This document shows, piece after piece, positions 19,313 through 59,754 of a stretch of 64,000 bases of DNA. Below the pieces are notes generated by a model. That model was not told where the DNA came from and made no database searches. It saw nothing but the letters and a program-made list of their open reading frames with translations. Source of the stretch: Thermoanaerobaculia bacterium (GTDB lineage: Bacteria; Acidobacteriota; Thermoanaerobaculia; UBA5066); the NCBI GenBank assembly GCA_035542215.1, contig DATKLW010000033.1, positions 15,651-79,650 on the forward strand. The letters are read 5' to 3'. Position 1 is the stretch's first letter. Each line of letters opens with the position of its first letter. A program made the position numbers and the translations under genes.

Positions 19313-19385
19313 CGCCCGCGCCGAGGAGCGGCCCCGAGCACGGCCCGGGGCCCGCGCTTGACGGACGGGGTAATCTCTTCGACTC

Positions 19386-19466
19386 GTGAACGCGCCCAAC
19401 ACCTTCGCCCTTTTCGCCGTTGCCGGGTATTTCTATACGCCGGCGAGGAGGGGCGCCGCCACGTAG
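19386..19466 (+). CDS. Candidate aromatic-amino-acid attenuator leader peptide (26 aa, GTG start)
   Basis: VNAPNTFALFAVAGYFYTPARRGAAT*: 3 Phe and 2 Tyr including a consecutive Y-F-Y run. Immediately upstream of a strong terminator and of the PDT-DAHPS-CM gene. Confidence 0.35.
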   Translation: MNAPNTFALFAVAGYFYTPARRGAAT

Positions 19467-19490
19467 GCGACACCAACCCCGGGTGACTCC

Positions 19491-19535
19491 CGAGGCCCCC
19501 CTCCGAGACGACGGAGGGGGGCCTTTTTCTTTTCG
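19491..19535 (+). terminator. Rho-independent terminator/attenuator upstream of pheA-aro fusion gene
   Basis: GGCCCCCCTCCG-AGACGAC-GGAGGGGGGCC followed by TTTTTCTTTTC. The leader segment GAGGAGGGG (19445-19453) is complementary to CCCCTCC in the 5' arm, a possible antiterminator. Confidence 0.55.
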
Positions 19536-19553
19536 CTTCGAAGGAGGCTTCCC

Positions 19554-21440
19554 ATGGACGGATCGAACACCGGCGGCCCAACCGACGTCCCGACGCCGCG
19601 CGCCGGCTACCAGGGCGAGCCGGGCTCGTTTTCCGCGCGCGCGGCCGCGCGCGCCGGCCGGCCGCTCGCGTACGCGACGTTCGACCGCCTCCTCCGCGCG
19701 CTCCTCGCGGGCGACGTGGACGTCGCGGTCCTCCCCGCCGCGACGCACGGCGCGGGGCCCGTCGTCGAGCCGCTCGAAGCGCTCGCCCGCGCCCTCGAGG
19801 CCGGCGGAGTTCCGCTCGAAGTGCGCGACGAGATCGCGATCCCCGTCCGCCTCGTCCTCGCGGCGCCCTCCGGCGTCGCCGAGGAGAGCGTGAGGGAAAT
19901 CCACTCGCAGCCGCCGGTGCTCCGTCAATGCGCGCGCCTTCTCGCGCGGCGCGACGCCGTGCCCGTCGAGACGCACGACACGGCATTCGCCGCCCGGCGC
20001 GTCGCCGAGCTCGGCGGCGCGCGTGCGGCCGTCTGTTCGGAGGAGGCCGCGCTGGAGGCCGGCCTCGTCGTTCTCGAAGAGGACGTGTCCGACGTGAAAC
20101 CGAACGCGACGCGCTTCTGGACCGTCGCGCGCCGCTCGGACGCCGAACCGACCGTCCGGGCGCTCTTCTTCTCGGGGGCACGTCTCGCCGCGGCCCTCCA
20201 CGACGCCGGCGCGGAGATCCTCATGCTCGCCGGGCGGCCTGGCGCGGCCGTCGGCGGGTTCGCAACCGTCGCCGCCGCCTCGCTCGCGAAGGCCGCGGGA
20301 CTCGTGGCGACGTCGGGCGAGACGCTCGTCTGGCTCGGCCCGGCGCCCGACCACGTTCCTCCGCCGCGCCTCAGGGACGCCCCGAGGGCGACGGAAGTCC
20401 GCGCGGCCACGGTCGTCACGGCCGGCGCGTTCGCGGTCGGGGGCGGGAAGCGCGCGGTCATCGCGGGCCCGTGCGCGGTCGAATCGCCCGAGCAGGTGAT
20501 GCGCCTTGCGAAAGCGGTCGCGCGCGCCGGCGCCACCGCGCTCCGGGGAGGAGTCTTCAAGCCGCGGACGTCGCCGTCCGCGTTCCAGGGGCACGGCCTC
20601 GAGGCGCTCCGCTGGCTGAAGGACGCGGGCGACGCGGTGGGCCTGCCGATCGTCACGGAGGTCATGGCCCCCGCGCAGGTGGAGCCGGTTGCGCGCCTCG
20701 CGGACGTTCTCCAGATCGGCGCGCGCAACTGCCAGAACTACGACCTCCTGAAGGAGGCCGGCGCCGCCGGTCGCCCCGTGATGCTCAAGCGCGGCTTCGG
20801 GACGACAGTCGAGGAATGGCTCAGCGCGGCCGAGTACATTCTCGCCGCGGGCTGCGAGGGCGTCCTCCTCTGCGAGCGCGGCATCCGGACGTTCGAGCGT
20901 TCGACGCGCGGCACGCTCGACCTCGGCGGCCTTCTCGCGGCGCGGTCCCTCACGCACCTGCCGCTCCTCGCGGACCCGTCGCACGCCGCGGGCCGCAAGG
21001 AGCTCGTCCCCGGCCTCGCGCGCGCCGCGTGGGGCGCGGGCGTCGACGGACTCATGATCGAGGTCCACGACGCGCCCGAGTCCGCGCTGTGCGACGGGCC
21101 CCAGGCGCTGCTGCCCGAAGACCTCGAAATGCTCCTCGACGAGTTCGGGCTCCTGCCGGGGCGCACGGGCTCCGTCGAACGCGTGCGGCGCGCGATCGAC
21201 GCCGTGGACTCTTCGATCGCGGCCCTCGCGGCCCGAAGGCTCGAGCTCTGCCGCCGCGTCGCGGAGGTCAAGAAGGCCACGGGCCGCCCCGTCCGGGACG
21301 AGGCCCGGGAAGCCACCGTGCGCGCGCGCTTCGCCGAGAGCCTCGGGAAGGACGCGACGAAAGCGTCCGGCCTCGCGGACGCGCTCATCGCGCTCGGACT
21401 CGAGGCCGAGGGCTGGGAGGGGGACGCTACTCGCCGATGA
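19554..21440 (+). CDS. Trifunctional fusion: prephenate dehydratase (N) - DAHP synthase type I-beta (middle) - AroQ chorismate mutase (C)
   Basis: N-terminal [11 protein letters not shown] and TRF motif (PDT). Middle [15 protein letters not shown]...[11 protein letters not shown]...[14 protein letters not shown] (KDSA-like DAHPS). C-terminal [30 protein letters not shown] (AroQ CM). RBS GAAGGAGG. Confidence 0.85.
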
Positions 21441-37176: not shown

Positions 37177-37252
37177 GGGTCCGTAGCTCAGCGGTCAGAG
37201 CCACCGGCTCATAACCGGCGGGTCCCTGGTTCGAATCCAGGCGGACCCACCA
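37177..37252 (+). tRNA. tRNA with CAU anticodon (elongator tRNA-Met; tRNA-Ile2 not excluded)
   Basis: 76 nt: acceptor GGGTCCG/CGGACCC, D-arm GCTCAGCGGTCAGAGC, anticodon loop CTCATAA, T-arm CCTGGTTCGAATCCAGG, 3' ACCA encoded. G1-C72 paired, so not an initiator. Confidence 0.85.
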
Positions 37253-59655: not shown

Positions 59656-59754
59656 GCAGTGAAGTTAGGCGGCGGCCGCGAGGGCGTCAAGCGCCGCGTT
59701 TGCATCTAGAATCGAAGACCCAGCACGCCTTGCCCGGCTGAACGAAGGTGCGTC

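Follow-up and report, generated by a model that had tools for sequence, protein, structure and literature searches.

The stretch of DNA analysed here (the window) comprises 64 000 nucleotides of contig DATKLW010000033.1 from a Thermoanaerobaculia bacterium, and this report concerns a candidate ribosome-mediated attenuator in the leader of a gene for a trifunctional enzyme of aromatic amino-acid biosynthesis. The gene lies on the forward strand at 19554–21440 and encodes a 628-residue fusion of prephenate dehydratase (PDT), type I DAHP synthase (DAHPS) and type II chorismate mutase (CM). In the aromatic pathway a PDT–DAHPS–CM enzyme makes phenylalanine, and its DAHPS and CM activities also serve tyrosine. 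The domains PF00800 (PDT), PF00793 (DAHP_synth_1) and PF01817 (CM_2) were found by Pfam in this order, in agreement with an earlier reading of the letters of this DNA (the sequence-only reading), which had named a PDT–DAHPS–CM gene downstream of the leader. The enzyme gene has a Shine–Dalgarno sequence (SD), AGGAGG, at 19542–19547 before its ATG at 19554 (the whole initiation region being 19542–19556), and GGAG or GAGG is present 3–14 nt before the enzyme ATG in all orthologs. The fusion enzyme is widespread, with more than 100 orthologous protein clusters; they come from metagenomes and belong to Thermoanaerobaculia or Acidobacteriota where named. No paper on the PDT–DAHPS–CM domain order was found in a full-text literature search.

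The leader open reading frame (ORF) runs on the forward strand from GTG at 19386 to TAG at 19464–19466 (26 codons) and was present in the program-made ORF list; a longer frame is ruled out because an in-frame TAA is located at 19371–19373. The encoded peptide, V/M-NAPNTFALFAVAGYFYTPARRGAAT, contains three Phe residues (codons 7, 10 and 16) and two Tyr residues (codons 15 and 17), with consecutive Tyr-Phe-Tyr codons at 19428–19436. This is the aromatic-rich 26-residue ORF singled out by the sequence-only reading, which had also placed a strong terminator 25 nt past the leader stop codon. At exactly this distance the terminator scan gave an intrinsic terminator on the forward strand (19492–19533), with a stem of 14 pairs at 19492–19525, 11 of them G–C, and a 6-nt loop, followed by the U-run TTTCTTTTCG; its energy is −32 kcal/mol. 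The two arms of the stem are referred to below as segments 3 and 4. The number of terminator-like sites in the window was not above that in shuffled sequence.

Upstream of the terminator and inside codons 20–24 of the leader ORF, duplex prediction identified a putative antiterminator strand (segment 2, GAGGAGGGGCGC, 19445–19456, forward strand). Its first bases, GAGGAGGGG at 19445–19453, had been proposed in the sequence-only reading to pair with CCCCTCC; the complementarity is that of the core GGAGGGG (19447–19453) to CCCCTCC (19498–19504) in the terminator 5′ arm. The whole leader of the window folds with a z score of −4.06, better than 200 of 200 shuffles. Each element named by the sequence-only reading was confirmed at the coordinates it gave. 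Taken alone, the window provides modest evidence above chance; on comparison of sequences, the decisive evidence is the recurrence of the whole leader unit at 21 further orthologous genes.

Ortholog loci were taken from a genome collection, from a metagenome scan with a PDT-domain alignment and from exact look-ups of individual orthologs. A scan of the genome collection with a full-length protein alignment was dominated by generic DAHP synthases and yielded three usable orthologous loci, and the metagenome scan was therefore performed with the PDT-domain alignment only. The leader unit was found in 22 of the 31 distinct loci with readable upstream DNA (window included), placed between a promoter-like motif and the enzyme SD, and the leader-bearing orthologs share 64–95% protein identity. 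Three kinds of upstream neighbour were observed (an OB-fold-like gene, a PF04020 gene or a divergent gene), which indicates that the unit belongs with the enzyme gene. The presence and absence calls among the orthologous loci were confirmed with a covariance model of the leader (R1), which found the window to hold a single copy and gave no match at 96 loci of distant PDT/DAHPS homologs.

Conservation of the leader together with its aromatic codons had been set in advance by the sequence-only reading as a test of its proposal, and the proposal passed it. The 22 leaders encode peptides of 22–32 residues with 3–8 Phe/Tyr residues each and are followed by the same terminator. Pooled over these leaders, Phe and Tyr account for 115 of 555 codons in frame (20.7%), compared with 0.4 and 6.4% in the two other leader frames and 3.0% in the fusion enzymes. 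Enrichment is thus frame-specific and roughly seven-fold, which largely answers the earlier caveat that it was modest; the leader sequences are related, so that a binomial value for the enrichment is no true probability, and the enrichment was seen in every clade of leaders. A single Trp codon occurs among the 555. That the codons are those for Phe and Tyr but not Trp is in keeping with the role of the enzyme, which produces Phe and contributes DAHPS and CM activity to Tyr as well. The positions of the Phe codons drift from clade to clade, as expected for regulatory codons. Tyr codons are divided between TAT and TAC in a ratio of 33:11 in the leaders versus 11:90 in the enzyme genes; the preference for TAT could be a sensitivity device, a consequence of a hairpin described below (P1), or both.

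An open frame alone is no evidence here because the two other frames are also mostly stop-free in this G+C-rich DNA. The T and A of the stop codon are nearly invariant alignment columns in the 22 leaders, and across seven length classes (22, 24, 25, 26, 27, 28 and 32 codons) the conserved UAG keeps to the frame set by the conserved start. Without translational constraint, each change in length would keep the frame one time in three.

The terminator is well supported by comparison of the 22 sequences: 93% of its cells are paired, compensatory changes are present at the base and the top of the stem, and the covariation score exceeds those of 500 of 500 shuffles and of all slid registers. The predicted duplex between segment 2 and the terminator 5′ arm comprises 9–14 bp (6 bp in the divergent locus L087), with energies of between −15 and −29 kcal/mol, in 22 of 22 leaders, and this complementarity ranks in the top 0–7% of control segments from the same locus (top 1.6% in the window). 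Seven core pairs are invariant in all leaders, as predicted for a strand under a three-strand constraint. With the A:U pair as anchor, the pair at antiterminator position −3 is C:G in some clades and G:C in others, a covariation at one flanking position. In L003, L083, L095, L004 and L167 the 5′ arm UCCCC matches the GGGG of the antiterminator and is mismatched with its own 3′ arm.

The geometry of the antiterminator strand relative to the ORF is also preserved. A GGAGGG-type motif is located 4–6 codons before the stop in each leader, with its A at codon position 1, 2 or 3 depending on the clade; the occurrence of the motif in three codon phases at this steady distance from the stop argues for selection on RNA and geometry rather than on the peptide. 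Segment 2 ends 0–9 nt before the stop codon in 21 of the 22 leaders (18 nt in L087). The distance from the last Phe/Tyr codon to the first antiterminator base has a median of 13 nt, just beyond a stalled ribosome. The internal AGGAGG was also considered as an SD for a downstream start and was ruled out, as no start codon follows it.

A further pairing, absent from the sequence-only reading, was predicted in the RNA made before the terminator 5′ arm. For 21 of 22 leaders, the minimum-free-energy (MFE) fold of this nascent RNA pairs the GGAGGG strand with a pyrimidine tract upstream of it. The tract of the window (segment 1, CGCCCUUUUCGCC, 19406–19418, forward strand) overlaps Phe codons 7 and 10; across the family the predicted 1:2 pairing overlaps Phe codons in 18 leaders. 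It encloses the hairpin P1 (UUGCCGGGUAU-UUCU-AUACGCCGGCGA, 19420–19446, forward strand), which carries the Tyr-Phe-Tyr codons and in these folds is the apical part of the 1:2 structure; P1 is possibly also a pause hairpin. A hairpin at this place, with differing sequences, was found in nearly all orthologs. The 2:3 and 3:4 alternatives foreseen in the sequence-only reading are predicted in 22 of 22 leaders and, with the added 1:2 pairing, the modelled leader has the full 1:2/2:3/3:4 arrangement of the trp and pheA leaders.

Constrained folding was performed with a ribosome footprint placed either on the Phe/Tyr codons or on the stop codon. With the footprint on most Phe/Tyr codons, the antiterminator was predicted in 22 of 22 leaders. 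With the footprint on the stop codon, it was reduced to 0 bp in 21 leaders and to 3 bp in L167.

Two smaller hairpins were predicted between segment 2 and the terminator, both on the forward strand. P2 (CGCC-ACGUA-GGCG, 19457–19469) has the stop codon in or next to its loop; at its place the orthologs have hairpins of 3–5 bp with different sequences. P3 (CGGG-UGACU-CCCG, 19480–19492), the role of which is conjectural, abuts the base of the terminator and lies in a conserved ACCCGGG block; in other clades the 3′ strand of P3 shares bases with the start of the terminator arm. The region 19457–19492 thus combines a hairpin with a stop codon in its loop and the conserved ACACCCGGG block with a second small hairpin, neither of which is needed by a simple attenuator model. 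Pairing of ACCCGGG with the 5′ arm of P1 was ruled out: no covariation was found and the pairing is broken in L003 and L098.

The leader ORF is preceded on the forward strand by the promoter-like motif TTGACG-N7-TAATCT (19358–19376), identified by motif conservation, in which TANNNT is taken as the −10 box. The general form TTGACR-N7-TANNNT, with an invariant 7-nt spacer, marks 21 of 22 leaders and has no other occurrence within 189 kb of related DNA. TTGACR was also tried as a −35 element with a −10 element at 16–18 nt; the hexamers found there (GACTCG, GCCTCG etc.) are neither −10-like nor conserved, and this assignment was rejected also because transcription would start inside the small ORF (sORF). 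A regulator site is one possibility for TTGACR.

The leader start codon sits at a fixed place after this motif, 5–11 nt (mostly 10) past the TANNNT box in the 22 leaders and 9 nt past it in the window. The leader ORF has no SD before it, the intervening bases being rich in pyrimidines; the enzyme genes, by contrast, all carry GGAGG. Absence of an SD is consistent with a start only 5–11 nt past a −10-like box, as in an mRNA that is leaderless or nearly so, and these features suggest that the leader may be translated from a leaderless mRNA or one with a 2–4 nt leader. The GTG start and the lack of a clear SD, both given as caveats in the sequence-only reading, are true of the window but are largely accounted for by this spacing and by the start codons of the family (ATG in 13 of 22 leaders, GTG in nine). 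Elsewhere in the window a normally spaced TTGACG-N17-TAACTT-N6-ATG was found at 59690–59653 on the reverse strand, before an ORF of 129 residues (59655–59266); the TAACTT-N6-ATG layout makes this a candidate leaderless gene and suggests leaderless translation in this organism.

Most probably, the leader is a classical ribosome-mediated transcription attenuator that follows the trpL/pheL principle, responds to how far tRNA-Phe and tRNA-Tyr are charged and governs the PDT–DAHPS–CM gene. The conserved sequence elements, together with codon usage and the alternative folds predicted, lead us to infer the following response to amino-acid supply. Transcription would start at GTG 19386 or a few bases before it, and the 26-codon leader would be translated without an SD. 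In the nascent RNA the pyrimidine tract with the Phe codons (19406–19418) would pair with segment 2 (GGAGGGGCG), with P1 at the tip. When Phe and Tyr are plentiful the ribosome would reach the UAG and, since this lies 4–6 codons after GGAGGG, would cover segment 2; the 3:4 stem (19492–19525) would then form and transcription would stop at about 19533. When Phe-tRNA or Tyr-tRNA is scarce the ribosome would stall at codons 7–17, in segment 1 or P1, and break the 1:2 pairing; segment 2 would remain accessible, as it begins to pair only about 13 nt past the last Tyr codon. The freed segment 2 would pair with CCCCUCC of the 5′ arm, so that the terminator would be blocked and the enzyme gene transcribed. 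In the absence of translation, formation of 1:2 and then of 3:4 would likewise terminate transcription.

Several observations weigh against this proposal. In folds that include the 5′ arm but no ribosome, half of the sequences, that of the window among them, adopt the antiterminator as MFE structure, so that the default state is not settled by thermodynamics. Column-wise covariation was not above that of shuffles for P1, P2 and P3, nor for the antiterminator in the 22 leaders, with either MAFFT or covariance-model-fitted alignments; for the antiterminator this is attributable to the invariant core, and all of these helices differ in register and length from clade to clade. Aromatic codons lie scattered, never more than three in a row; the leaders of L099, L163 and L167 contain only three of them and that of L094 is devoid of Phe codons. 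The U-runs of L167 and L172 are weak.

Initiation of transcription and translation raises further difficulties. The 7-nt spacer is one helical turn short, so that TTGACR and TANNNT do not form a σ70 −35/−10 pair. Initiation in the leader is deduced from its context, with no SD and with a GTG start in the window, and the usual 10 nt from box to start would give a 5′ untranslated region of 2–4 nt rather than a strictly leaderless mRNA. Finally, the leader is missing from nine of the 31 loci (L082, L084–L086, L089, L091, L092, L096 and L164). At these nine loci the fusion gene directly follows, or overlaps, the upstream OB-fold-like gene; in L082, L164 and L084–L086 there is no room for any terminator, and four loci have a gap of only about 20 nt. 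One of the loci that lack the leader, L082, has 89% protein identity to the window, which implies that the loss (or gain) of the whole unit was recent.

The conserved blocks without an obvious role for a ribosome, namely P1, P2, P3 and the ACACCCGGG block, would suit a translation-independent RNA switch (a riboswitch or the target of an RNA-binding protein) that selects the antiterminator or the terminator while the ORF is incidental, the more so as an open frame means little in G+C-rich DNA and no SD is present. Such a switch is very unlikely: it leaves unexplained the frame-specific seven-fold Phe/Tyr enrichment, the fixed distance from box to start, the in-frame UAG over seven length classes and the constant 4–6 codons from GGAGGG to the stop, and no Rfam family matches the leader region. 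Alternatively, the ORF might act through its product, either as a nascent-peptide sensor of the TnaC type, in which a C-terminal G-Y-x-Y-P-x-x-R-R-G would arrest the ribosome on free Phe/Tyr, or as a functional micropeptide acting by itself. The pattern G-Y-(F/S)-Y-(T)P ... R-R-G does recur in many peptides and an N-terminal M-N-A in about half. However, R-R-G varies (G-R-G, R-E-G, G-G-G, K-R-G, G-E-G, E-G-G) where the GGAGGG nucleotides stay, in three phases, and the codons for G-Y-x-Y-P form P1 and are replaced by those for G-V-Y-S-P or G-A-Y-A-P where the hairpin sequence differs. Constraints on the RNA thus account for the peptide pattern, and the chance of a peptide-based mechanism is very slim.

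The two remaining alternatives concern the output of the unit. It might be an unregulated terminator of the upstream gene, or an independent small RNA gene (promoter, about 150 nt and terminator), with no control in cis; the unit of the window does lie between two co-oriented genes, the upstream one of which lacks a U-run terminator, and a short terminated RNA would also be yielded by any attenuator. This is highly improbable given that the unit always travels with the fusion gene, whichever the upstream neighbour, that the fusion gene directly follows its neighbour in the nine loci without the unit, some of which have no room for a terminator, and that the enrichment in aromatic codons corresponds to what the downstream gene does. 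As for translational attenuation, in which the position of the ribosome alters how accessible the enzyme gene's ribosome-binding site is, the closest leaderless precedent, the mycobacterial polycysteine sORFs, works in this way according to its preprint (bioRxiv 10.1101/834739), and a pairing of CCUCC in the 5′ arm with GGAGG downstream is conceivable. The strong hairpin and U-run are nevertheless conserved in nearly all leaders, and the SD, 12–30 nt past the terminator, is unpaired in the predicted folds; we regard control at this level as extremely improbable.

Transcription attenuation by a translated leader, the interpretation preferred here, was compared with known systems. In an Rfam scan of the whole window, no gathering-level match was found except a tRNA gene at 37177–37249. 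The Phe_leader family (RF01859) reached 14.6 bits (E = 9.6), the gathering score being 55, and its match was limited to the terminator part; the matches of a permissive local scan (PyrG_leader, ctRNA, mir-9242 and Phe_leader) each correspond to the terminator hairpin alone and were rejected. The pheL–pheA attenuator of Escherichia coli and other γ-proteobacteria (RF01859; PMC3082878) likewise combines a short leader ORF containing Phe codons, a terminator with a competing antiterminator and a target that contains prephenate dehydratase. It shows no sequence or structure homology to the present leader, has a run of Phe codons in place of mixed and scattered Phe and Tyr codons, comprises 15 codons rather than the 26 codons without an SD found here, and precedes a CM–PDT gene instead of a PDT–DAHPS–CM gene of Acidobacteriota. 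With E. coli trpL the leader would share, according to the predictions, the 1:2/2:3/3:4 scheme, regulatory codons in segment 1, masking of segment 2 by the ribosome at the stop codon and 1:2 as the default without translation. The predicted differences from trpL are that segment 2 is wholly within the coding region, that other amino acids are sensed and that the mRNA is probably leaderless.

The leader-peptide attenuators of Actinobacteria (PMC1262725) are similar in that the hosts have a high G+C content and the leaders were found by comparative genomics; they belong to a different phylum and show no sequence similarity to the leader described here. The same survey reported no leader-peptide elements for Phe or Tyr genes in Actinobacteria. 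The Corynebacterium ilvB leader, as cited in PMC10272879, is also translated without a ribosome-binding site. The mycobacterial polycysteine sORFs, as described in the preprint (bioRxiv 10.1101/834739), resemble the present leader in being leaderless (a property only presumed here), in being enriched in codons for one end product and in acting as a ribosome-stalling sensor upstream of biosynthetic genes; they unmask a downstream ribosome-binding site, whereas the output here would be an intrinsic terminator.

In the literature consulted, nearly all documented leader-peptide attenuators come from Proteobacteria and Actinobacteria, those of Firmicutes and Bacteroides being few (PMC2965389; PMC3082878). 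Before the hisS case in Firmicutes leader peptides were known only from the first two phyla, and almost all predicted attenuators of Acidobacteria are unannotated, according to a genome-wide terminator study (PMC2965389). The pheL genes are reported from γ-proteobacteria, and Bacteroides and Desulfobacterium may provide a few more (PMC3082878). Our literature search found no attenuator paper for Thermoanaerobaculia and no leader-peptide attenuator of Acidobacteriota, a possible mention in the cross-phylum survey of Lopatovskaya et al. (2010) not being excluded.

The leader family would extend attenuation to a poorly studied, mostly uncultured class of soil and sediment bacteria, would offer a testable handle on the regulation of aromatic amino-acid synthesis in Thermoanaerobaculia and, turned into a covariance model, would be of use for annotation. 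Should its mRNA indeed be translated in leaderless form, it would also exemplify this mode of translation in combination with control by a terminator. We put forward only tentatively, and with more doubt than belief, that this is the first leader-peptide attenuator family described for Acidobacteriota and that it departs from the textbook cases in three linked respects: a leaderless or near-leaderless mRNA, dual Phe/Tyr sensing (with the rare TAT codon) matched to a trifunctional enzyme that feeds both, and transcription from the unusual fixed TTGACR-N7-TANNNT element, perhaps the site of a second, protein-based layer of control.

Three minor observations were made. A G+C-rich hairpin region (GGCCCCG...CGGGGCC) without a U-run is located at 19313–19357, right after the stop codon of the upstream gene, and gave a sub-threshold Rfam match to BjrC68 (25.5 bits compared with 39). 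The tRNA gene at 37177–37249 mentioned above is the only gathering-level Rfam match of the window. A distant PDT homolog (35% identity) on an unrelated metagenome contig (L119, 1313–1470) has an sORF of its own, VTTSFDARLNFSYFSFSFSTAGGAGGATA, which is not homologous to the leaders described above and is followed by a 15-bp terminator; GGAGCGGG of this sORF repeats the terminator 3′ arm, and the L119 leader apparently has the same architecture and an independent origin.

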